Below are positions 2,844 through 37,789 of a stretch of 64,000 bases of DNA, piece after piece. Positions within the stretch are counted from its first letter, which is position 1. Each line of letters starts with the position of its first letter. The notes under the pieces were generated by a model. The model saw nothing but the letters and a program-made list of their open reading frames with translations, searched no databases and had not been told where the DNA came from. Source of the DNA: Bdellovibrionales bacterium (GTDB taxonomy: Bacteria > Bdellovibrionota > Bdellovibrionia > Bdellovibrionales > UBA1609). The stretch spans positions 96,001 through 160,000 of the forward strand of contig JAWLHR010000003.1 of assembly GCA_041690295.1 (NCBI GenBank). Direction: 5' to 3'. The position numbers were made by a program, and so were the translations under genes.

Positions 2844-4188
2844 AGACACAATTTGCGCCACGGCCACGGCGCACGGGATAGGGGCCATCTCAGTTATACG
2901 TATTAGCGGTACCGAGGCGGCGAAGATCACGCGCAAAATCGCCGCCTTCCTCCCCGAAAACTTGGAGTCTCATAAAATTTATTATGGTGTTTTACGGGAT
3001 AAATCAGGATCTCCAATCGATGAGGTCCTGTTGTCTTATTTCGCCAAAGGCCGAAGTTTTACCGGTGAAGAAACCATTGAAATTTCCTGTCACGGCAGCG
3101 AACTCGTCACCAGTGAAATCTTGCGTGAGCTTATCAGCAACGGCGCGAGGCTCGCTGAACGGGGTGAATTCACTTACCGTGCGTTCATGAACGGCCGGCT
3201 GGATTTGGTTCAAGCCGAAAGTGTATTGGCGTTGATTGAAAGCCGATCCAAGCGGGCCAGTTCGCTGGCGCTGCGGCAACTTCAAGGGGAACTATCCCGT
3301 CATTTAAAAGGTTTTGTTGATTCACTGACTTGGATTCTCGCTCAGCTGGAAGCCAATATTGATTTCGCCAGCGAAGACATCGTGATCGCTTCGAATGACC
3401 AATTGCGGTCGCGGGCGAGTCAGCTTTTGAGCGAGGTGGACAGATTGTTGCGAACTCACCGCACCGGTCGTGTGATTCGGAACGGTTACCAGGTGCTTTT
3501 GGTCGGCCGTCCGAATGCGGGAAAGTCGAGTTTGTTGAATTCACTGGTTGAAGAAGAGCGCGCGATTGTAACGCCCATCGCGGGAACGACGCGCGACTTT
3601 GTCGAAGCCGAATTGCAAGTGGAAGGCGCGCGGGTTTTATTAATTGATAGCGCCGGCTTGCGTGTGACCGATGATCCGGTTGAGAAGATCGGCGTTGAGC
3701 GTACATTGGCCAAAGTCAAAGAAGTGGATCTGGTCTTCTATGTGACTGATTCCTCGGAAGGGATCGGCGCGGAAGATCGCGAATTTTTCAGTCAGTGGGA
3801 TTGGGATCGTTGTGTCGTGGTGGCCAACAAGTCGGATCTTAATCCAGATTGGCAGTGGCGCGAGAACCTGAAACCGGTTTCGATTTTGAAAACCAGTGTG
3901 GTGAACCGCGAAGGGTTGCGGGAGTTGCGAGGAATTTTGGCGGAACGTATTCGAAATGAATTGGCCGAAGATTCGACTCTATTAATTCATGCCCGTCACC
4001 AGCAGAATCTAGAAATCCTTAAGCGAAGTCTTGAGGATGTCATTCCGATGCTTGAACGTGGTGAGAGCCCGGACTTGATCGCCCTGGAATTGCAGACCGG
4101 CCTTCAGGCTCTCTATGAAATCCTGGGTTTGACTTACGATGACCAAGTCATGGACCGGGTGTTTTCCGAGTTTTGTTTGGGGAAATAA
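2821..4188 (+). CDS. mnmE: tRNA modification GTPase MnmE
   Basis: [18 protein letters not shown], terminal FCLGK. Confidence 0.97.
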
Positions 4189-6070: not shown

Positions 6071-6738
6071 TGAATGGGTCGCCACGACAGCCGAATGATG
6101 CTGATAACGCTATGTGGCGACTTGGTCAGTGGTTCCCTGACTTGCCTGAGAACATCCACACTTCATTGAAGACCTATCATTCAGAGCTTCTTAAGTTTAA
6201 TGGCAAGCTCAACCTGATTTCCCGGGCTACGGAGCGCGAAGCGGATGAAATTCACTTTGCTGACAGTCTTTCCGCTGTCCAGATGATTTTGGCCACTGGA
6301 ATTAAGAGTGACGTTTATGATGTGGGCTCAGGAAATGGACTTCCCGGAGTTGTTTTGGGTGTAGTTAGCCCAAGCACGAAGGTTTTCCTGGTTGAGAGTG
6401 ATATGAGGAAGGGTGAATTCCTAAAGCATATCATTCACACGCTCCACCTCTCGAATGTGAGTGTATTGAGTGCTCGGCTGGAATCCTTGAAGGATACCGA
6501 TATTCAGGTCGGAGTTGCGCGAGGTTTTGCTTCGATTGCGAAGACTTTGTTGGTTTGCAATCGGCTTTTTGCCAAGGGTGGCCGATTTTTCCATCTAAAA
6601 GGGGCCACTTGGTCTCGGGAGATCGCTGATATTCCGTCGCAACTCATTTCAGTATGGGCGCCGGAGTTGATTGGCGAATACTCATTGCCGGTGAGCCAAG
6701 CTCGTCGCGCTGTCGTCTGCACGACCAAAACAGCTTAG
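6070..6738 (+). CDS. rsmG: 16S rRNA m7G527 methyltransferase RsmG (GidB)
   Basis: HFADS, DVGSGNGLPG SAM motif; TAATG coupling to mnmG. Confidence 0.93.
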   Translation: MNGSPRQPNDADNAMWRLGQWFPDLPENIHTSLKTYHSELLKFNGKLNLISRATEREADEIHFADSLSAVQMILATGIKSDVYDVGSGNGLPGVVLGVVSPSTKVFLVESDMRKGEFLKHIIHTLHLSNVSVLSARLESLKDTDIQVGVARGFASIAKTLLVCNRLFAKGGRFFHLKGATWSREIADIPSQLISVWAPELIGEYSLPVSQARRAVVCTTKTA

Positions 6739-6742
6739 GGAA

Positions 6743-6758
6743 TGTTCCACGTGGAACA
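6743..6758. other. parS centromere site 1 (TGTTCCACGTGGAACA)
   Basis: Perfect 16-bp parS-type palindrome, extended to 20 bp (6741-6760); parAB nearby. Confidence 0.97.
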
Positions 6759-6780
6759 TTTTGAGGTCACCTATCCCCGA

Positions 6781-6796
6781 TGTTCCACGTGGAACA
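6781..6796. other. parS centromere site 2 (TGTTCCACGTGGAACA)
   Basis: Identical 16-mer, extended to a 22-bp palindrome (6778-6799). Confidence 0.97.
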
Positions 6797-6803
6797 TCGA
6801 AAA

Positions 6804-7328
6804 TTAGTGTCCCGAACTTGATTGAGTCTCAGATTTTTCTGAATTTTCGGCTTCAGAGGCCTTGGATAGTCGATCTTGGAGCTTGGGTACTCGTGAATTC
6901 CAATTTAAATTCACTTCGCGCATGCGAATATTCACTGAATAGTCAGAATACTCACGTGGGTCAGGCCACTCTTTACCTGCGGCTTTAGCCTCTCGCGCGG
7001 AAATCTTATCCATGACTTTCCGCCGATCCGCTCGAATTCGGAAATATTTGGCCATCTGCTCATTGTGAACGATCGCCTTTTCTGTCTTTGCAATCTCTCT
7101 TCGGATGTCCTTCATGTCCATGGAGTTCGGCTCAATTTTTTCCAGCTTCTCGCGAAGCTCCTTCAACTTCACCTTGGACTCCTCATAGCCCTTCTGATGA
7201 TCAGTGGCTCGCTTATCAAGGTCCTTCCAAATGGGATCGCGCAAATGAGGATTGGGATCCTCACCACTACAGCCCGTGGCAACAAGCACCGTGCAAAAAA
7301 TTAAGAACGCCGTGAAAAAACCACTCAT
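6804..7328 (-). CDS. Hypothetical coiled-coil lipoprotein
   Basis: Signal peptide with lipobox VATG-C; K/E-rich heptad region; 174 aa. Confidence 0.8.
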   Translation of the reverse strand: MSGFFTAFLIFCTVLVATGCSGEDPNPHLRDPIWKDLDKRATDHQKGYEESKVKLKELREKLEKIEPNSMDMKDIRREIAKTEKAIVHNEQMAKYFRIRADRRKVMDKISAREAKAAGKEWPDPREYSDYSVNIRMREVNLNWNSRVPKLQDRLSKASEAENSEKSETQSSSGH

Positions 7329-7408: not shown

Positions 7409-8257
7409 ATGGCGAGAATCATCTGTGTGGCTAATCAAAAGGGTGGAGTAGGCAAAACCACGACTTCAGTCAATCTTGCCGCGGCGCTTACTGAGTTAGG
7501 CAAGCGAGTACTCATAGTAGACATGGACCCTCAGGGCAACGCGTCAAGTGGGCTTGGTGTCAAGAGATATGAAAATCAAGAGAAGAATATCTACCAAGTC
7601 CTCATCGGCGAGAAGACTATCCACGTGGCTATTCAGAATACTCAAGTGAATAACCTGGACATTGTTCCAGCGAATCCCGATTTGGTGGGCGCGGAAATCG
7701 AATTGGTCGATATGCCTCATCGTGAATATCGACTTAAGTCCGCCCTCAATGAGGTTCGTGATCGTTACTCCTATATATTAATAGACTGTCCGCCAAGCCT
7801 GGGTCTACTGACAGTGAACTCATTGTCGGCGGCGGAAACATTTTTGGTTCCGCTGCAATGTGAGTACTACGCTCTCGAAGGACTGTCGCAGCTGTTGAAT
7901 ACAGCCGGCCTGATTAAAAAGAGTCTGAATCCAGACCTTCGCATAGAGGGAATCGTACTTACGATGTTCGATGCCCGAAATAATCTTTCCCACCAGGTGG
8001 TGTCTGAAATTCAGTCCCATTTCCAAGACAAAGTTTTCAATGCAATCATCCCGCGGAATGTTCGCTTGAGCGAGGCACCAAGCCACGGCCAGACGATTTT
8101 CCAGTACGATCCCAAATCACTCGGAGCACGTAAATATAAGGAGTTGGCGGAAGAACTGGACCGACGTGTGTATGGTGTGATGAATGTCACTCCACAAGCT
8201 CAGCCCGAGGAGATGGATCCAACACCCACAGTTCATGATGGAGAAGTTCATGTCTGA
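7409..8257 (+). CDS. parA: Chromosome partitioning ATPase ParA/Soj
   Basis: KGGVGKTT deviant Walker A, DPQGNAS, DCPPSLG, IPRNVRLSEAPSHG. Confidence 0.97.
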   Translation: MARIICVANQKGGVGKTTTSVNLAAALTELGKRVLIVDMDPQGNASSGLGVKRYENQEKNIYQVLIGEKTIHVAIQNTQVNNLDIVPANPDLVGAEIELVDMPHREYRLKSALNEVRDRYSYILIDCPPSLGLLTVNSLSAAETFLVPLQCEYYALEGLSQLLNTAGLIKKSLNPDLRIEGIVLTMFDARNNLSHQVVSEIQSHFQDKVFNAIIPRNVRLSEAPSHGQTIFQYDPKSLGARKYKELAEELDRRVYGVMNVTPQAQPEEMDPTPTVHDGEVHV

Positions 8258-9251
8258 GAACGTGCAGGCGACGAGAACAAATCAAAAAAGTAAGGGACTT
8301 GGCCGAGGTCTTGGAAGTTTGCTCGGCCCGACCAATGAGGGCGCGTTTTCCAAAACATCGGTGGTCAATCAGGTGGTCGAAGAAGTCACAGCGAAAATCG
8401 AAGCGAATCAACAGTCGGAACCGGCCATAAGTCAGGGAATCATGGAGTCCATTCCCGAGGGCTCACGGATCTGGCACATCGCCATTGAAAATGTTGAGCC
8501 CAATCCGGATCAGCCACGCCAAGTGTTTAATAAAGAAGCCCTGGCCGAGCTCGCCAATTCCATTAGAGAAAAGGGAATCATCCAGCCCTTGCTCGTGCGC
8601 AAAAAAGAAGATGGCAAATTCGAAATCATCGCCGGCGAGCGGAGATGGCGAGCGGCCCAATTAGCGGGATTAAAAGAGGTCCCTGCCCTTATAAAAACCA
8701 GTGAGGACCAAGAAGTTCTTGAGCTGGCGCTGATTGAGAACATTCAGCGGGAAAACTTAAATCCCATTGAAGAAGCCGAAGCCTATGATTTTCTGATTAA
8801 AAAATATAACCTGACCCAAAATGACCTTGCGCAAAAGGTGGGTAAAGAGCGGGCTACGATCACGAACGTTCTGCGTTTGCTGCAATTGCAACCGGGGGTT
8901 CGCGAAATGGTCTCCCGAGGTGAAATTTCCCTGGGTCAGGCTAAAGTGCTTCTCTCGTTGACCGACGCCCAGCTCCAAGTTGATTGGGCGAAAAAGGCCA
9001 AAGAAGAAAGCTTGAGTGTGCGGGAGCTGGAAAAGCGAGTCGCCAAGGCCAAATCCGGTGAAGTGGAAAAAGTTGAAGATAGCGTGAGAACCCGGGCGGC
9101 CGCTGACCTCGCCGAGGAGTTACAAAAATTGATCGGCTCAAAGGTCGCGATCGATTATAATGCGGGTAAAGGTCGAATTGTGATTCACTTTTACTCGGAT
9201 GAAGAGCTGAATCAGATCGCCGATACTTTGAGGGATTCATGGCGCAACTAG
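8250..9251 (+). CDS. parB: Chromosome partitioning protein ParB
   Basis: KGLGRGL N-terminal peptide, QPR, GERRWRA CTPase motif, ENIQRENL; GGAG before ATG 8250. Confidence 0.97.
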   Translation: MSENVQATRTNQKSKGLGRGLGSLLGPTNEGAFSKTSVVNQVVEEVTAKIEANQQSEPAISQGIMESIPEGSRIWHIAIENVEPNPDQPRQVFNKEALAELANSIREKGIIQPLLVRKKEDGKFEIIAGERRWRAAQLAGLKEVPALIKTSEDQEVLELALIENIQRENLNPIEEAEAYDFLIKKYNLTQNDLAQKVGKERATITNVLRLLQLQPGVREMVSRGEISLGQAKVLLSLTDAQLQVDWAKKAKEESLSVRELEKRVAKAKSGEVEKVEDSVRTRAAADLAEELQKLIGSKVAIDYNAGKGRIVIHFYSDEELNQIADTLRDSWRN

Positions 9252-9580
9252 AGGCCGTGAACGCGGTCACTGCACTTTTGGAGAAAGGCGCGTCGTTTGA
9301 CGGGCGGTTGACGTTCGAGGGCACCGTTCGCATCGGCGGTCATTTTCGTGGTGAGATCTTTACCAACGATACCCTTGTAATAAATCCAGGCGCTCAGGTT
9401 GAGGCCCAGATCGAGGCCGAAACCGTCATCATTTCCGGTGCTGTGAAGGGAAATATCTTCGCCCGCCGACGGGTGATCATGCATCCCCCGGCGATTTTCC
9501 AGGGGACGGTGACGACCCCTTCGCTCAGGATTGATGAAGGAGTCCTCTTCGAAGGGGCCTCATATATGCCGAAGAATTAA
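9239..9580 (+). CDS. Bactofilin (polymer-forming cytoskeletal protein)
   Basis: Beta-helix repeats (FDGRLTF.G.VRIGG.F.GEI...IISGAVKGNI...LRIDEG..FEG); overlaps parB end. Confidence 0.9.
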   Translation: MAQLEAVNAVTALLEKGASFDGRLTFEGTVRIGGHFRGEIFTNDTLVINPGAQVEAQIEAETVIISGAVKGNIFARRRVIMHPPAIFQGTVTTPSLRIDEGVLFEGASYMPKN

Positions 9581-30081: not shown

Positions 30082-30963
30082 ATGGATTTAGTGGCCCTTG
30101 CCCCTCGTGAACTTGGCCATGTCTTGATCGATGAGCTCGGCGATCGAATTATTGAACAGCGAGATCGGCTTTTTTTAATCAAGGGCAAAGCGCGGCCACT
30201 TTTTTGCCAGAATCTTTGGCTGGAGCCGCGGATTTTTAAATTCAAATCCATATCAGAGGCCGCTAAGCACTTGAGATCCATTCAGCGCAATTGGTGGCTT
30301 CATTCCACGTCCCATCACCGGCGGGCCAAATTGATCGCCGAACAGCTGCCCGTGCTCAAACCAAAGCGACTGGATTTTCTCGCTCCCATTCCAAAATCGC
30401 CGCTGGGTTCCTGGACCTTGCTTGATAGCGAGACAATGTTGTACTCGACGGATTGTTCCAGCCCCTTCCCCGACGGCGAGATCGAGTTTAACGAGGATAA
30501 AGAGAATCCGCCGTCGCGAGCTTATTTGAAGTTATGGGAACTCTTCACAATAACAGGTGTTTATCCGAGGTCGGGGAGCCGGGTTGTTGACCTTGGGTCG
30601 TCGCCCGGTGGCTGGACTTGGGTCTTGGATGCGCTGGAGTGCCAGGTGATCAGCGTGGACAAAGCGCCACTTTCGCCACAGCTTAAGTTATCCAATCGGG
30701 TGGAGTATCGCGCGGAAAGCGCGTTTGCCATGGAACCTTTCGCGGTCGATTGGTTATTTTCCGACGTGATTTGTTATCCCGATCGTTTGTTGAAGCTGGT
30801 CCAAAGTTGGGAATCCGTGGCCGCAAATATGGTTTGTACGATCAAATTTCAAGGCCAAACTGATTTCAAGATCGTGAGTGAGTTTCTGAAAGTGCCGGGG
30901 TCCGGTGTCATTCATCTTTATAACAACAAACACGAACTGACCTGGTTCCGATTCAAAACCTAA
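30082..30963 (+). CDS. RlmM/FtsJ-like SAM-dependent RNA 2'-O-methyltransferase
   Basis: PPSRAYLKLWE, DLGSSPGGWT, SDV, K, NKHE. Confidence 0.85.
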   Translation: MDLVALAPRELGHVLIDELGDRIIEQRDRLFLIKGKARPLFCQNLWLEPRIFKFKSISEAAKHLRSIQRNWWLHSTSHHRRAKLIAEQLPVLKPKRLDFLAPIPKSPLGSWTLLDSETMLYSTDCSSPFPDGEIEFNEDKENPPSRAYLKLWELFTITGVYPRSGSRVVDLGSSPGGWTWVLDALECQVISVDKAPLSPQLKLSNRVEYRAESAFAMEPFAVDWLFSDVICYPDRLLKLVQSWESVAANMVCTIKFQGQTDFKIVSEFLKVPGSGVIHLYNNKHELTWFRFKT

Positions 30964-32195
30964 ATGTTGTAGGCCCGAAGCGTGTTCATCGCGGACTTGA
31001 ATCCGGTACGAGTGATCGCCGTCAAGACTTTGGTATTGAGTGAAAAGTGATCGTAGAAAAAGAACTCGTAATCCTGGGGGCTGGGGTGGATGTAAATGTA
31101 ATCCACGTCGGGATTGAAGTTCGTGCGTTGAACTAAGATATCGACCAGTTTGGCGATATGTTCTTCGGCGATTTGTTTTTCTCGCATGTAACCCTGGACC
31201 GCTTTGATCATGGCCCGCACGTCGTGTTGATGTTTGATATGGGTTTCGATCTTCTTTTGCACCACCTGGTACAAAGCCTGGTTGAAGATGAGCGGCATTC
31301 CGTATTCGTGCAGAGAACCCATTTCTTCGGTGAAGTGATAGGGCTGGATTGAATAAGAGGCGATCACTAAATCCGCACCTTGGTCCGCGGCGATATGGGT
31401 GGAAAGCGTGTCGCGAATTTCTCCGTCAAAGTAGAATATCTCGCGGCCTTTTTGATTACGGATCCCATAAGGCGCGAAAAAGGGTGGAAGCGCGGCCGAG
31501 GCCGCCACCGCTTCGCTGATCTTGGCGTAATCAACGAATTTAACTTCGCGGGTTTTAATCGTTTCTTCAAACGGCCCGAAAATCGCTTTACGGGAATGAT
31601 TGAGTTGCGTCGCGACGATATAAAGTTCAGCCCCTAATTTCTTAAAATCATTCTCCGGCACGACGTAGGTCCGGATATATTTTTCGATATTCTTGGTGCT
31701 GAAGATACCATTGATCTTGAAGGCTTCTTTCAATGAAGCTTCAATGCCGCCGCTCACCGCCAGCCGGCGGCGAAACATCTTGGGCAAAAGTCGAGCTGGG
31801 TGTCCCGCGCCCAAATTCAACGCGAAGATATCACGATAGGAAAGTGGTTTCAGATAAGGATTATCGCTTTTGACACGAGTGAGTGCGCCGATTCCCGCGC
31901 CGCGCGTGAACGCTTCGATAATCGCATCGAGCGAGTGTCCGCTCGCTAGAAACGTCGCCACCACCGAGCCCGCACTGGACCCGACGTAAAGCCGGATGGT
32001 GAGCTCCTTGTTTTCAAATTTCAAACGGTCCTGGGGATCAGTGCCGCCGGCGAAGGTAAAACCTTTTTCGCGAAGCGCAAGGCAGACCCCAATGTGAAAA
32101 GCGGCCGCCTTGACGCCTCCGCCGCTCAGAACCAATGCGATCCGTTTACGGTCAGATAACTTCACTTGGTCAACTCTACGTGGATGAGTATTCAA
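30960..32195 (-). CDS. Patatin-like phospholipase (start uncertain)
   Basis: GGGVKA oxyanion loop, GSSAG nucleophile, DGE. Confidence 0.9.
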   Translation of the reverse strand: MNTHPRRVDQVKLSDRKRIALVLSGGGVKAAAFHIGVCLALREKGFTFAGGTDPQDRLKFENKELTIRLYVGSSAGSVVATFLASGHSLDAIIEAFTRGAGIGALTRVKSDNPYLKPLSYRDIFALNLGAGHPARLLPKMFRRRLAVSGGIEASLKEAFKINGIFSTKNIEKYIRTYVVPENDFKKLGAELYIVATQLNHSRKAIFGPFEETIKTREVKFVDYAKISEAVAASAALPPFFAPYGIRNQKGREIFYFDGEIRDTLSTHIAADQGADLVIASYSIQPYHFTEEMGSLHEYGMPLIFNQALYQVVQKKIETHIKHQHDVRAMIKAVQGYMREKQIAEEHIAKLVDILVQRTNFNPDVDYIYIHPSPQDYEFFFYDHFSLNTKVLTAITRTGFKSAMNTLRAYNI

Positions 32196-32348
32196 AATCC
32201 AGAAAAAGGCGACTACTCAGAATGACCAATCCTCTGAACTGGCCTTTGGGCCTTGTTTTCAGGGCATAGGCCCAGTTTTGGACCGTGACTACTCACATTG
32301 CTTTACATGCCTAAATGCTATGCTAAGTTTTGAATATCCATAGGAGGA

Positions 32349-32789
32349 GTGTTGAGCACTCAGGCTTGGTTAACCTTAATTGAGTATTCAAACAAGTATC
32401 GGGTGAGCTTGTCCACTCTGCGCCGGCGGATCAAAGGCGGCGAAATCGAGTACAAGTTTTCCGATGGGAAATATTTGATCAAGGATGGCCCGTTGCAAGT
32501 CAGTTCGGAAGCGGAGGCAGTCGCCCCCCCACCCTCGGTGAAGCCTCAGCCGCGAAATGACGAATCGGCGGACAAAGACCAATTTTGGCGAACCACTCAA
32601 GGCCTTTTGAATGAAATCAAAAAGGCCTACTCCCTCATCCTTCAGGAGAAGGAGGAGCAAATATTACAACTCAAGGAGGAGGTCGCGGACCTAAAGACAT
32701 TGGTCCGCGTCCTTGAAGAAGACAACACGCGGATGAAATCCGCGGTTGCCCCACCTGACTTGGATCTCGACTTCGGATTGGAAGCTTAA
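32349..32789 (+). CDS. Hypothetical DNA-binding protein: MerR/excisionase-like wHTH, Pro-rich linker, coiled coil
   Basis: WLTL.EYS.KY.VS.STLRRRIK.G wHTH; QEKEEQILQLKEEVADLK heptads; AGGAGG RBS (TTG 32352 likely start). Confidence 0.8.
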   Translation: MLSTQAWLTLIEYSNKYRVSLSTLRRRIKGGEIEYKFSDGKYLIKDGPLQVSSEAEAVAPPPSVKPQPRNDESADKDQFWRTTQGLLNEIKKAYSLILQEKEEQILQLKEEVADLKTLVRVLEEDNTRMKSAVAPPDLDLDFGLEA

Positions 32790-35200
32790 GCCGCCGCCGC
32801 CGGAGATTTGGGCTTCTTCGGCGCCTTGTCCTTGGTTTTTTGCTTGGCCGCTTTTTTATCGAAAGCCATCGCGAAAACCTCATCGAGATTTTCCACGAAC
32901 ACGAAGCTCAGTTTCTTTTTGAACTCCTCGGGAATGTCGGCGAGGTCTTTCTGATTGGCGAGCGGCAGAATTATATTGGTGATGCCATGAGTGAGGGCCG
33001 CGAGTGATTTTTCGCGAATTCCTCCCACGGGCAGGACGCGGCCGGAAAGCGTAATTTCACCGGTCATCGCGATGTCCGTTCGAACCGGCACTCCGGTCAT
33101 CAAGCTGGTCAACGCGGTGGCCATCGTCACGCCCGCCGATGGACCATCTTTGGGAATGGCGCCCGCGGGCAAGTGAATGTGAACTTCGTTCGTTTCGAAA
33201 AATTCAGGGTCAATACCAAGTTCTTCACAATGGGCATGGGCGTAGGACCAAGCGGCACGAGCGGACTCTTTCATCACGTCGCCCAGCTGTCCCGTAAGTA
33301 CCAGGCCGCCTTTGCCTTTCATTTTCAAAGCTTCAACGTAGAGCACTTCACCGCCAGCCTGGGTCCAGGCGAGACCCGTGCTGATTCCCACTTGATTCTC
33401 TTTGAGGCGCTCCTCACGTAAAAAGCGGGGCGGACCCAAAAGCTCGGGAATGTTTTGCGGCGTGATCACCACTTTCTCGTTATGGCCGAAGACGAATTTC
33501 TTGGCCACTTTACGGCAAAGCGAGCCGATTTCGCGCTCGAGGTTCCGTAATCCAGCTTCACGGGTGTAATGGGAAATCAGATAAGACAAACCGTCATCGG
33601 TGAATTCAATTTGATCCTTGGTAATTCCGTTCGCCTCGATCTGGCGGGAAATCAGGTGTTCCTTCGCGATCAGAAGCTTGTCTGAATCCGTATAGCCGCT
33701 GATATTGATGGTTTCCATACGATCGCGAAGCGCCGGCGGGATGTTCTCGTAGACGTTCGCGGTGGCGATGAACAAAACATTGCTCAGATCGAAATCCACG
33801 TTGAGGTAGTTGTCGCGGAATGAATGGTTTTGTTCAGGATCGAGCACTTCGAGCATGGCGGCGCTCGGATCGCCACGGAAATCCGAACCAAGCTTGTCGA
33901 TTTCGTCGAGAACCATCACTGGATTATTGGTTTTCACTTGTTTCAAAGCTTGAATGATTTTGCCCGGCATGGCGCCCACATAGGTGCGGCGGTGACCGCG
34001 GATTTCCGCTTCGTCTTTGACACCGCCAAGGGCGATACGGAAATATTCGCGGCCCATCGATCGCGCGATGCTCTTACCGAGAGAGGTCTTTCCAACTCCC
34101 GGAGGGCCGACGAAGCAAAGGATTGGGCCCTTCATGTTTTTCTCTTTTAATTTACGGACAGCGAGAAATTCGAGAATGCGGTCTTTGGCTTTATGGAGGT
34201 CGTAGTGGTCTTCATCCAATATACGTTGCGCCCGGTGAAGGTCGAGATTGTCCACGGTGGATTTACTCCAGGGGAGATCCACCATCCAATCCAGATAAGT
34301 CCTCACCATACTGGCTTCGGAAGCATCCGGGTGCATGCGTTCCAAACGGCCGAGCTGTTTCAAAGCCTCGGCTTGAACATTTTCAGGCATTCCGGCCTTG
34401 ATAATGCGCTCCCGCAGCTCTTCCATTTCCTCGGTTTTCGAATCATTTTCACCGAGCTCGTTCTTTATGGCGCGCATTTGTTCGCGCAGGAAGTACTCAC
34501 GTTGGCTCTTGGACATTTCGTCCTTGGCCTGTGAGCGGATTCGGGCCTGCATTTGCAGGACTTCGAGTTCGTTGGCGAGAATCTCGTTCACCAGCAACAA
34601 ACGCTCTTTGGGATGGAAAGTTTCGAGAACGCGTTGGGCGTCGGCCACTTTCAATCCAAGATTGCTGGCGATCAAATCAGCCAGGCGGCCCGGATCGGAA
34701 ACATCATCAAGAACCAAAAGAATGTCCGGCGAGAGCATGCGTCCAAGAGCGATGATCTTTTCCAGATGCTCTTTGGCGTTTCGGATCATGGCTTCGAACT
34801 CAACGTTCGAGCCGGCCGCCACTGGAGTTTCTTCGATTTTTTCAACGGACACTTCGAAACAGGGATCGGATTTTACAAAACGCTTGATGCGACCTTTGGA
34901 AACACCTTGGATCAGAATTTTCACGCGGCCGTCGGAGAGTTTGCGCATGCGCATGATCATGGCGATCGTGCCCACGCGGTAAATGGTATTCTCGGAGGGA
35001 TTTTCTTCGGTGATTTCTTTTTGCGAGGCGAGGAAGATCAGACGATTCTTGCTCAGTGATTCCTCAACCGCCCGAATCGATGATTCGCGACCCACATACA
35101 GCGGAAGAATCATGTACGGAAACACGACAATGTCGCGAACCGGAAGCATGGGCAGGGTTTCGGGAATTTCTAAGGATCGTTCATCAAAGCTCATTTGCAT
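32786..35200 (-). CDS. lon: ATP-dependent Lon protease
   Basis: [16 protein letters not shown] catalytic Ser. Confidence 0.99.
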
Positions 35201-35369: not shown

Positions 35370-35729
35370 TTAGGCGCGCTTGGAGCCCCCCGATTCGCGG
35401 ATTTCAGCGCCTTCGATACTGAGTCTTGTCCAGGGGATAGCTAACAGACGTTCAAGTGAGATGGGCTCACCGGTTTCCTCACAAATGCCGTAGGTGCCCC
35501 TCTCAATCCGGGAAAGCGCGGCTTCGATCTCGAAAATTTGCTTTCTTAACCTTTGTTGAGCCGCGAAAAGCTGATTCTCCGTCAAAATGGATACAGTTTG
35601 ATCAACTTCGTCGCCACGATGATCCCTCTCGCGGAAATCCGCGACGTAGTTGCTGAAGCGGTTCAGAAGCTCCTCTTTCGCACGTATGAGTTTCTGCTTG
35701 CATTGGGCGATTGTTTCTTTGTCGATCAT
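35370..35729 (-). CDS. DksA/TraR family regulator, one-cysteine type
   Basis: DEVDQT coiled-coil tip, GTYGICEETGEPI..ERLLAIPWTRLS; GGAGG before ATG 35729. Confidence 0.88.
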   Translation of the reverse strand: MIDKETIAQCKQKLIRAKEELLNRFSNYVADFRERDHRGDEVDQTVSILTENQLFAAQQRLRKQIFEIEAALSRIERGTYGICEETGEPISLERLLAIPWTRLSIEGAEIRESGGSKRA

Positions 35730-35774
35730 GTCCCCTCCCGTCCAGGTCGACTTAAACCTAAAGACAAAAGGGGG

Positions 35775-35802
35775 AGCCTGGCCGGTTATCGCCGGACAGG
35801 CT
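35775..35802. terminator. Hairpin over the LpoA-like gene stop codon
   Basis: AGCCTG(G)CCGG-TTATCG-CCGG(A)CAGGCT with T-rich tracts on both strands. Confidence 0.45.
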
Positions 35803-37789
35803 TTTTCTGAGAGGGCTCGGCGGAATCGTTCTCGAGCTCGGGTGACCAAGCCGTGATGCTGTTTTGCTTCACGACGAAAGGCGTAAGCGGCCGCACAAGT
35901 TCACGGTTCGCGTTCATGGTCATTGGTCCAGTGATACCTTTGAATTCACGAATATTGTTGAGAGCCGAAGCCAAACCCACGCGGGAACGCTCGCCATTTT
36001 CAATCAGGCGTCTGAGGAGCAATCCGGTTTCATATCCTTGGGATTCGAAGATGCCCGGCTCTTCCCCGTAGGCTTCTTTGAAATCTTTAAAAAATTTCGA
36101 GCTGCGGAAAGCCGGGTCATTGATCAGATTACTGTCGACGAAGACCGCGTTTTCCACGTTTTGTTGTCCCCGGCGGATCAGTTCCGAAGAATTCCAGACA
36201 TTCGTGCCCAGCATTCGAATGTTGGTGACACCCTGATACGCCAGCATGGGCGCGATTTGCCCCACCGCACGGGGAGTGTCGGGAATGAAGATCGCATCGA
36301 AATCAACGATGGGAGGCAAGAGATCATCGGGAGGACTTCGCCGTGCCGAAACCCGTTTTTGTTTTTTAAACCACTCGGTCACGCGACTTCTATATTCCGT
36401 ACGACGATCTTCAACATAAAAAGTTCCGACCAAACGCTTAACCGGTCCGCGAAAGTCCGTTTCTTTGGGATTGTACACCTGGGCTCCGGCGATCACGCCG
36501 CCACGGGCGAGAACTTCGTCCCAGAATAAATTAGCGTACTCCACGCCGTAGGGATCATTGGGATAGAGAATGGCGAACCTTTTCAGCTTCAGATCTTCCA
36601 TCGCCAGGCGAACCAATTCTTTGACCTGCATTTCACTGGTGACGGCGTTACGAAATATGTACGGCCCGATCTCGGTCAGTCCGGCTTTTTGCGAAAGGGC
36701 GATTGAAGGCACTCCGAGTTCATCGGCTTTGGCGGCGACCGTGGCCGCGGTCCGGCTTAAAAGACTGCCGACAATGGCAATCGCGCTATCTTCAAGAACC
36801 AACCGTTCCACCGACTGGCGCGCCTGATCCGGTGAGCCTTCACTATCGACAACCGCGAGACGGAAGGAACTTCGATCCGGTCCGGTGATGCCAAGCCCTA
36901 GGCGCAAACCATTCAATGTCTTATACGCGACGGTCGAGTACCGGCCGGTGAGAGGTAAGACCGCCCCGATCGTGTCGGCGTCCACGCGCCGGCGTGAATC
37001 GATCTGTTGAACATAACTTTCGGCCCGGCTTTGGTAAGGTGTTCCCTGTCCCCATTCCGCCGCTCGCGCGAAAAAACTTCGGGCATCGTCGTATTTTTTC
37101 TTCTGCAAGCGGAACATTCCCAAGCGGAACGCGGCTTGCGCGCGGACGAAACCGAACTCCTCATCACCCACGATTTTTTCCAGATCCGATTCCGTCAGAT
37201 ATTGCGTGACGACTTCCGAAGCGCGGGCCTGCGCCGAAGACTTGGCTTCGGGGTTTGGATCCTTCGCGTAGATAAAGGCCAAAGCTCTTAAAGCGTCCAA
37301 ACGATCGCCGGTGGTGACGAGCACGGCGTAACGATGGCGGTACAATTCGAGCTTAAACGCATCGGACAGCCCCGGGATTTTTAATCCGCGGGCGCTCAGG
37401 GCGAGCGATTCATCCAAGCGACCCATTTTATGAAGACAGCGGGATGCACCAAGCAGGGCTTCGGCTTCATTGGCGGTGAAAACATCGGATTCCACCAGAC
37501 TCATATAGGTGGTGTAAGCCAAATCGAATTTTTGATGTTTGAAATAGATTCGCGCCAATTGAATGGTCGCATCATCGGCCGCATCGGAATTGGGGAATTT
37601 ATTAATCACCCATTTAAAACGGCGAACGGCTTTCGCCTCCGCTCCGGCTGCAAGTTCAACCTGGGCTTTGGCCACTTGCTGTTTAGCATCGGAGGGCGCT
37701 TCCGCCCGGGGTTTTTTCTTCGGCGCCAAAGAACAAGATGCAATCAATAATGTCAAAGCGGTAACTGCCAGCCAGCGTAGCCAATTCAT
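35786..37789 (-). CDS. LpoA/LppC-like lipoprotein (TPR plus periplasmic-binding-protein domain)
   Basis: Lipobox IAS-C, TPR-like N-half, IGAVLPLTG, DFDAIFIPD, F.GITG. Confidence 0.8.
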   Translation of the reverse strand: MNWLRWLAVTALTLLIASCSLAPKKKPRAEAPSDAKQQVAKAQVELAAGAEAKAVRRFKWVINKFPNSDAADDATIQLARIYFKHQKFDLAYTTYMSLVESDVFTANEAEALLGASRCLHKMGRLDESLALSARGLKIPGLSDAFKLELYRHRYAVLVTTGDRLDALRALAFIYAKDPNPEAKSSAQARASEVVTQYLTESDLEKIVGDEEFGFVRAQAAFRLGMFRLQKKKYDDARSFFARAAEWGQGTPYQSRAESYVQQIDSRRRVDADTIGAVLPLTGRYSTVAYKTLNGLRLGLGITGPDRSSFRLAVVDSEGSPDQARQSVERLVLEDSAIAIVGSLLSRTAATVAAKADELGVPSIALSQKAGLTEIGPYIFRNAVTSEMQVKELVRLAMEDLKLKRFAILYPNDPYGVEYANLFWDEVLARGGVIAGAQVYNPKETDFRGPVKRLVGTFYVEDRRTEYRSRVTEWFKKQKRVSARRSPPDDLLPPIVDFDAIFIPDTPRAVGQIAPMLAYQGVTNIRMLGTNVWNSSELIRRGQQNVENAVFVDSNLINDPAFRSSKFFKDFKEAYGEEPGIFESQGYETGLLLRRLIENGERSRVGLASALNNIREFKGITGPMTMNANRELVRPLTPFVVKQNSITAWSPELENDSAEPSQKKPVRR

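Follow-up and report, generated by a model that had tools for sequence, protein, structure and literature searches.

The wHTH–coiled-coil gene and its neighbourhood

The window, a 64,000-nucleotide stretch of the Bdellovibrionales genome G000, carries a gene for a 145-residue protein predicted to combine a winged helix-turn-helix (wHTH) domain with a coiled coil, and this gene shares its intergenic region with a divergent patatin-family gene (Table 1). The open reading frame that encloses it spans 32349..32789, and translation most likely starts at the TTG at 32352, four bases downstream of an AGGAGG at 32342-32347. In the loci that we read across the phylum the patatin gene is the usual divergent upstream neighbour, family f17 being the exception. 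The convergent lon gene does not adjoin the ortholog in genome G095. Upstream of lon are two further minus-strand genes, which we take to encode a DksA/TraR-like protein (35370-35849) and an LppC-like lipoprotein (35786-37789).

In G000 the dnaA and dnaN genes are found immediately to the left of the window, and we assume that oriC is placed between them as in Bdellovibrio bacteriovorus. On this assumption the distance from the wHTH gene to oriC is ~34 kb; to the pair of parS sites it is ~25 kb. Wherever one contig carries both, the gene and parA are ~20-40 kb apart. The interval between rsmG and parA also holds a gene for a 174-residue probable lipoprotein (6804-7328, minus strand) with no Pfam match, which in many relatives is bracketed by two parS sites.

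Table 1. Features discussed in the text. Positions are those of the window unless a genome and contig are given; motif sites are named by their distance from the TTG start at 32352.
Feature	Position	Strand	Remarks
parS-flanking array	6675..6954		sites 6675, 6863, 6925, 6936, 6945; in the 3' ends of rsmG and the lipoprotein gene
parS site 1	6743..6758		
parS site 2	6781..6796		
parA, parB and bactofilin genes	7409..9580	+	bactofilin: PF04519, E 9.7e-27
parA-internal array	7428..7644		sites 7428, 7505, 7626, 7635; kept at synonymous positions
Patatin-family gene	30960..32165	-	PF01734, E 1.5e-20; probable GTG start 32165; divergent from the wHTH gene
Motif site -167	32185..32194		13.6 bits; 20-29 nt before the patatin start (GTG)
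Motif site -142	32210..32219		10.6 bits; degenerate, less conserved
Imperfect inverted repeat AACTGGCC...GGCCCAGTT	32237..32277		between the -142 and -66 sites; by eye
Motif site -66	32286..32295		12.9 bits; 6 bp upstream of the putative -35
Putative sigma-70 promoter	32302..32329	+	TTTACA-N16-TAAGTT; TG directly before the -10; below scanner threshold
Motif site -21	32331..32340		13.7 bits; just after the putative -10
wHTH–coiled-coil gene	32352..32789	+	145 aa
Motif-like site +1	32353..32362		8.3 bits; over the start codon; coding (M-S-T-Q)
Motif site +29	32381..32390		coding (I-E-Y-S)
lon	32786..35200	-	convergent with the wHTH gene; neighbour only
tal (transaldolase) array	G000:C3:57920-57968		outside the window; other side of oriC
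26-bp palindrome ACCTAT.NGTTAATTAAC..ATAGGT	G064:C1:3780687, G201:C1:3842749, G180:C1:3684436, G136:C1:3619765, G188:C1:3470394, G155:C1:2733729, G157:C1:3255938		

A clustered palindrome in the promoter of the wHTH gene

The original prediction placed six related 10-mers around the start of the gene, and all six are present. Four of them (-167, -142, -66 and -21) are intergenic and two (+1 and +29) fall in coding DNA; the +29 site is partly protein-driven, since it sits inside conserved E/D-Y-S codons, and the encoded protein explains both coding sites in part. Among the 16 same-genus loci with upstream DNA, sites near -167 and -66 recur in 15 and 14, respectively. Given a matrix background of 0.23 sites/kb, four sites in 190 bp have a Poisson p of ~1e-7, so the cluster is not a matter of chance. 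The inverted repeat that lies among the intergenic sites is visible by eye in most members of the genus, and may represent an RNA hairpin, a pair of weak motif sites or the site of a second regulator.

A promoter had also been proposed between the sites. Its elements stand in the sequence, TTTACA at 32302-32307 and TAAGTT at 32324-32329 with a 16-nt spacer, but a consensus promoter scanner reported no promoter-like site in 32100-32900, and for this reason we treat the promoter as no more than plausible. Relative to it, the -21 site is placed as it might be for autorepression.

The motif shared by these sites is a 10-bp palindrome with a central TA, TG(A/G/C)nTAn(T/C/G)CA (10.3 bits), derived from 77 non-redundant regions out of 88 upstream of orthologs, with coding copies excluded and G000 left out. 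Unseeded enumeration over the 77 regions returned top gapped words that all came from this motif, and TGACTA/TAGTCA was found in 58 of them against 7.6 expected. Expectation-maximization seeded with the consensus gave ~4.1 sites per promoter, spaced with no one dominant value apart from a 9-bp overlap. At least two sites occur in 80 of the 88 regions versus 0.6 in shuffled sequence, a comparison that is partly circular, the matrix having been trained on the same regions. The original prediction turned on orthologs sharing the upstream motif, and within the order it is conserved.

Promoter sites of this kind raise the alternative that the wHTH protein binds the motif as an ordinary transcription regulator, whose tiny regulon would take in its own gene and the patatin gene together with parAB and the genes behind tal; we consider this unlikely. 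Sites -66 and -21 do bracket the putative promoter, and in 12 of 21 more distant loci a single AGAGTACTTG-like variant site lies over the -35 (by eye). Yet the motif shows no intergenic enrichment genome-wide: by rough gene calls, 4 of the 28 exact copies of TGAnTAnTCA in G000 are intergenic and the word falls outside the 12 most enriched spaced palindromes of this genome, and we accordingly rejected a genome-wide regulon.

Fold and conservation of the encoded protein

The AlphaFold model comprises a beta-alpha-alpha-beta-beta wHTH (residues 6-44), a low-confidence linker (52-70) and a single helix of 61 residues (72-132). The domain layout originally proposed is borne out in this model as to the wHTH, the linker and the coiled coil, while the acidic-hydrophobic tail that completed it is present here but is not general: of 89 orthologs, 27 have such a tail and 40 end no more than 14 residues past the coil motif. 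Across 44 orthologs hardly any variation is seen in the recognition helix (SxSTLRR) or the coiled coil, in contrast to the linker and tail; within the family, conservation is highest in the coiled coil. Its heptad hydrophobicity is 0.69-0.75, in two phases.

A fold search with the wHTH domain returned Xis as the best match (Z 6.7, rmsd 1.7, 46 aligned), MerR-type domains and BldC at Z 5.2-5.4, TnrA at 5.0, the centromere-binding domain of pSK1 Par (8csh) at Z 4.6 (rmsd 2.1, 44 aligned) and RacA at rank 29 (Z 3.9, rmsd 2.3, 45 aligned). BldC (Z 5.2) was also the top Foldseek match. Middling Z values such as these indicate a fold class, Xis/BldC/MerR-type, and not a function. The domain has the small wHTH fold of the BldC/Xis-like (HTH_17) group (Z 5.2-6.7), the corresponding profile PF12728 scoring below its cut-off with 7 of 44 members at E<=0.01. 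Cooperative DNA binders (Xis, BldC, pSK1 Par and RacA) are among these fold neighbours, and a fold closest to the BldC and MerR regulators speaks for a conventional regulator. The full-length structure search gave generic helices only, and profile searches found no sequence relative of the protein in the PDB.

Each of the known groups nevertheless differs from the wHTH protein. MerR-family regulators have a dimerisation helix joined directly to the wHTH and an effector domain, whereas here a variable, low-confidence linker of at least ~25 residues parts the wHTH from the helix, after which no effector domain follows. BldC and Xis proteins are without its long conserved coiled coil, and they bind direct repeats, head to tail, as opposed to the palindrome described here. 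A further likeness is to pSK1 Par and TubR/TubY of plasmids and phages, in which a wHTH binds centromere DNA, as is predicted here; pSK1 Par and TubY share the wHTH-plus-coiled-coil layout, and the recognition helix has a weak match to TubR (6tey, E 0.14). Unlike pSK1 Par and TubR, however, the protein is encoded on the chromosome, is near-universal in its order and stands beside an intact ParABS system, and our search of plasmid sequences found no homolog.

The nearest named family is DUF3972 (PF13118) of the Campylobacterota, the name that UniRef gives to the protein of B. bacteriovorus HD100. The match is sub-threshold (residues 12-124, 21.5 bits against a cut-off of 26.2), with 3 of 44 members at E<=0.01 and an Atlas score of 0.93. 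In Campylobacterota the DUF3972 gene is located near cheZ, and the literature that we found records no function for it.

Arrays at parS, parA and tal

Only four clusters in G000 contain at least 4 sites per 300 bp: tal (4), the parS flank (5), parA (4) and the promoter of the wHTH gene (6). All are less than 40 kb from oriC, at about -36, +8.5, +9 and +34 kb, and the densest is the promoter of the wHTH gene itself. The cluster previously suggested at 6.7-7.6 kb is real and consists of the five sites around parS and the four in parA. Of the 25 column-permuted matrices run as controls, those with a total below 1,200 hits produced no cluster of this size. Clusters of three were found at C3:57167-57284, before a gene for a 695-residue protein, and on C15, the latter a weak repeat. 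The tal array is ~36 kb from oriC and 4 kb from a histone gene, and in several other families it is displaced downstream of tal. The histone gene (G000:C3:53339-53533; L192:9340-9534) encodes a 64-residue histone-fold protein with a weak match to PF00808, presumably a bacterial histone of the Bd0055 type.

When parA and tal were resampled with synonymous codons in the 16 genomes of the genus, 71 sites were observed against 9.3 expected in parA and 51 against 13.9 in tal, 15 of the 16 genomes reaching p<0.05, at a four-fold-site identity of 0.39 for tal. In 14 more distant genomes the counts were 19 versus 4.7 (parA) and 18 versus 5.1 (tal). Genome-wide the same procedure over-predicts (557 observed, 789 expected). 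Since the sites at parA and tal exceed the counts expected from resampling, selection acts on the DNA there.

The location of the array at the centromere differs by lineage, among gidA, rsmG, the lipoprotein gene, parA and the parA-parB junction. Sites around parS are mostly within coding DNA, and in two genomes (G081 and G041) they come to 3-9 bp from a parS, on both sides. In favour of a transcription regulator is the arrangement in genus g37, whose array is directly upstream of parA and operator-like, with 2-5 sites within ~280 bp of the start; control of parAB transcription by the cell cycle, as the accessible text of PMC10547168 has it, points the same way. In the genus of G000, by contrast, the majority of sites on the parS side are either inside parA or 350-770 bp upstream of it, past a divergent gene, and the shifting of arrays among gidA, rsmG, the 3' end of parA and the 5' end of parB also argues against a regulator.

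Co-occurrence of the gene and the arrays

The wHTH gene is present in 40 of 41 relatives, in 193 of the 201 genomes of the order Bdellovibrionales and in 133 of 151 genomes of the phylum, almost always as a single match or as two pieces of one gene. In all eight genomes where a single query had found no copy, a profile search found none either. Genome G020 has a second, broken copy at C8:11159-11590 with three in-frame stops. Two losses are clean: in G183 (L337) the patatin gene stands directly against the 3' end of lon, and in G023 (L336) two tRNA-like sequences occupy, by eye, the place where the gene would be. A patatin match was absent from three of the five genomes without the wHTH gene that were tested.

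Within 250 bp of parS, the 16 genomes with the gene have 41 sites in 17,065 bp (2.40/kb), compared with 0.53/kb in the rest of the 20-kb stretches, and the four genomes without it have 1 site in 5,596 bp (0.18/kb) versus 0.46/kb elsewhere. Within 1.5 kb either side of parA the median is 7 sites in genomes with the gene (n=51; permuted-matrix control mean 1.9) and 1 site in those without (n=7; control mean 1.7), kin among them not being independent, so that the p value of the test overstates the case, and the seven gene-less genomes being 90-94% complete and from few lineages; L044 (truncated) and L058 (a duplicate of G027) were dropped from this count. The proposal that one motif marks both the promoter and the parS/parAB cluster is upheld by these comparisons: the sites are under selection, and those at the cluster are mostly gone when the gene is. 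Exceptions exist in both directions, namely three genomes (G177, G174 and G042) with the gene and 1 site each, and G172 and G062 without it and with 6 and 5 sites. On these sequence comparisons, the conserved pair of cis-element and gene tied to the centromere region is real.

The two gene-less genomes that keep their arrays are what would be expected if another protein bound the motif, the wHTH gene being a mere target that is co-regulated with parAB. A precedent for the core is the Escherichia coli SlmA site GTGAGTACTCAC, which contains it (PMC3020112, accessible text). SlmA, however, is a TetR protein with sites chromosome-wide except in Ter, in contrast to the wHTH fold here, and we rejected it as the binder in G000, where the best match to the SlmA family reaches 25 bits against a cut-off of 120. 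Also at odds with another binder are the 0-2 sites at parA in five of the seven gene-less genomes, the state of the patatin promoter where that gene is kept without the wHTH gene (no upstream site in G023; one in G183, inside lon) and the fact that the promoter of the wHTH gene is the densest cluster of G000. On balance we think this explanation rather unlikely.

G056, in which the gene is absent, has six parS sites at C1:1549588-1555613, spread through a rearranged parAB-bactofilin region, and G031 has four at C1:1427311-1430961. The gene-less G023 repeats the elements TGCTTACGCA / TGCGTAAGCA at C1:313663, 602170, 613209, 854403, 996628 and 1176447, which are probably a small repeat family and not the motif.

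Extent of the origin domain and families without arrays

Support for a wide, RacA-like origin domain of sites is weak. The site density within 270 kb of oriC relative to distal DNA is 1.45 in G095, a ratio reached by 0 of 100 controls, and 1.25 in G098, reached by 7 of 100, and at the strictest cut-off it is ~1. Strict single sites show no clear bias to the origin in four one-contig genomes. Site pairs of family f10 were found, by hand, within 300 kb of the origin at 29 of 44 loci. A bias also showed in the reversed control (13 of 28), so we set this result aside; of 20 such pair loci, most are unrelated coding regions.

Arrays accompany parS or parA in families f22, f23 and f28, and are absent jointly from the promoter and parS in f17 and f20. 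In f17 none of 10 promoters has two sites and the parS flanks contain 1 site in 10,144 bp; in f20 a proximal site occurs in 4 of 10 promoters, with 0 sites in 3,096 bp of parS flank. A search of these small samples found no replacement motif at either place. Both families retain the gene with a very similar recognition helix, and since they do so without parS arrays, an origin role would not be phylum-wide.

The B. bacteriovorus ortholog and its expression

From its length and gene order we identify the probable B. bacteriovorus ortholog as Bd3881 (Q6MGP3). The HD100 member of the cluster, CAE81236.1, has 161 residues; Bd3881 is 486 nt long with the 1,200-nt Bd3882 starting 294 nt later, and the 161-residue ortholog in G095 has the gene layout seen at Bd3881. 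In the literature searched, with subscription papers mostly outside its scope, the motif and the protein are undescribed and Bd3881 figures for this organism as a table entry only. It is a named, abundant, uncharacterised protein, with a predicted site and predicted places of binding, in a genetically tractable organism, and if the transcription-factor reading holds it becomes a candidate regulator of parAB.

According to the part of PMC3627812 available, Bd3881 RNA rises from 42 RPKM in attack phase to 6,291 in growth phase, where it exceeds parA (1,434), parB (736) and the histone gene Bd0055 (5,041). A second RNA set, from the accessible portion of PMC10627809, has it at 3,437 compared with 198 for parB. 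In its abundance the transcript resembles that of a nucleoid protein, which counts against a conventional regulator. As regards protein, the data accessible from PMC12546842 assign Bd3881 to cluster 9, whose 20 members include ParA and ParB, and over 11 time points its level correlates with ParB at r 0.987 and with ParA at r 0.971. Timing of this sort is common to many replication genes and would be expected of co-regulated targets, so that it also favours another binder, and cluster 9 in the same data further holds Bd0687 (HTH Cro/C1) and NrdR. The Tn-seq supplements searched (PMC6561027) have no Bd3881 row.

Comparison with RacA

The original prediction went further and likened the protein to RacA of Bacillus subtilis, with a tether to DivIVA or bactofilin. 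Both proteins combine a MerR-type wHTH, a flexible linker and a coiled coil, and in the portion of PMC4914108 available the RacA site, ram, resembles our motif in being a palindrome with TG..CA ends that is clustered near oriC, although ram is a GC-rich 14-mer, TGACGCCGGCGTCA, as against a 10-mer with a central TA. Moreover, RacA acts in sporulation and Bd3881 in growth phase, and the arrays here, unlike those of RacA, hug parS and a few other loci. Profiles A1 and A4 found no RacA chain among PDB sequences up to E 10, and Pfam and NCBIfam scans of the wHTH proteins returned no RacA family; since site and sequence differ, membership of the RacA family fails.

A true functional analogue, in which the coiled coil binds DivIVA or bactofilin and ties oriC to the invasive pole, would be a subset of our preferred reading, and several points favour it. 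The coiled-coil C-domain of RacA binds DivIVA directly, as the accessible text of PMC4914108 has it; G000 encodes DivIVA; the coiled coil is what the family conserves most; and the oriC anchor is stated to be unknown in the available text of PMC11318664. We hold the analogue to be very unlikely all the same. Genomes without the wHTH gene still encode DivIVA (5 of 5), and the DivIVA two-hybrid library screen, in the text available of PMC7186360, returned Bd0548, Bd2106, Bd2107 and Bd3538 only. The paper on proximity labelling with DivIVA (PMC11025332) does not contain the string 'Bd38' in its main text. In the accessible proteome data (PMC12546842) the level of Bd3881 correlates with DivIVA at r 0.48 and with bactofilin at r -0.09, and the accessible record shows Bd3881 at its lowest outside growth phase though oriC is still polar. 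With a tail that varies between orthologs, a site unlike ram and RacA well down the fold ranking, the tether as first proposed is not supported, and the acidic tail was rejected as its means.

Proposed role at the origin

From the motif, its clustering, selection, gene co-occurrence, fold class and timing, we infer that the wHTH protein itself binds DNA. The reading that we prefer, and to which we would give about an even chance, is that it is the likely binder of the clustered palindromes, an autoregulated organiser of the origin region that works alongside ParABS. Dimerisation through the long helix would bring two wHTH domains together to read the palindrome. By occupying -66 and -21 the protein would set its own transcription and limit its own promoter. 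The arrays at parS and ~35 kb either side of oriC would be occupied during replication, and binding there could serve to compact the origin region, to bridge it, or to flank the ParB complex. A partner would dock onto the conserved coiled coil, a pole tether being one possibility, which makes the protein a candidate origin-anchoring factor; by analogy it may work like RacA or like a plasmid centromere-binding protein.

A bolder form of this preferred reading, possible but in our judgement doubtful, has the sites at parS/parAB and ~35 kb either side of oriC constitute a second centromere code that is read by the autoregulated Bd3881, which would then be the missing oriC anchor of the invasive pole or a gate for ParB loading in multi-copy, non-binary segregation. 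ParB loading is controlled by the chromosomal context of parS, and its on-off mechanism is called unknown in the available part of PMC10547168.

Apart from the motif, the control search recovered a conserved 26-bp palindrome, presumably a binding site, in 7 of 23 genomes (Table 1).
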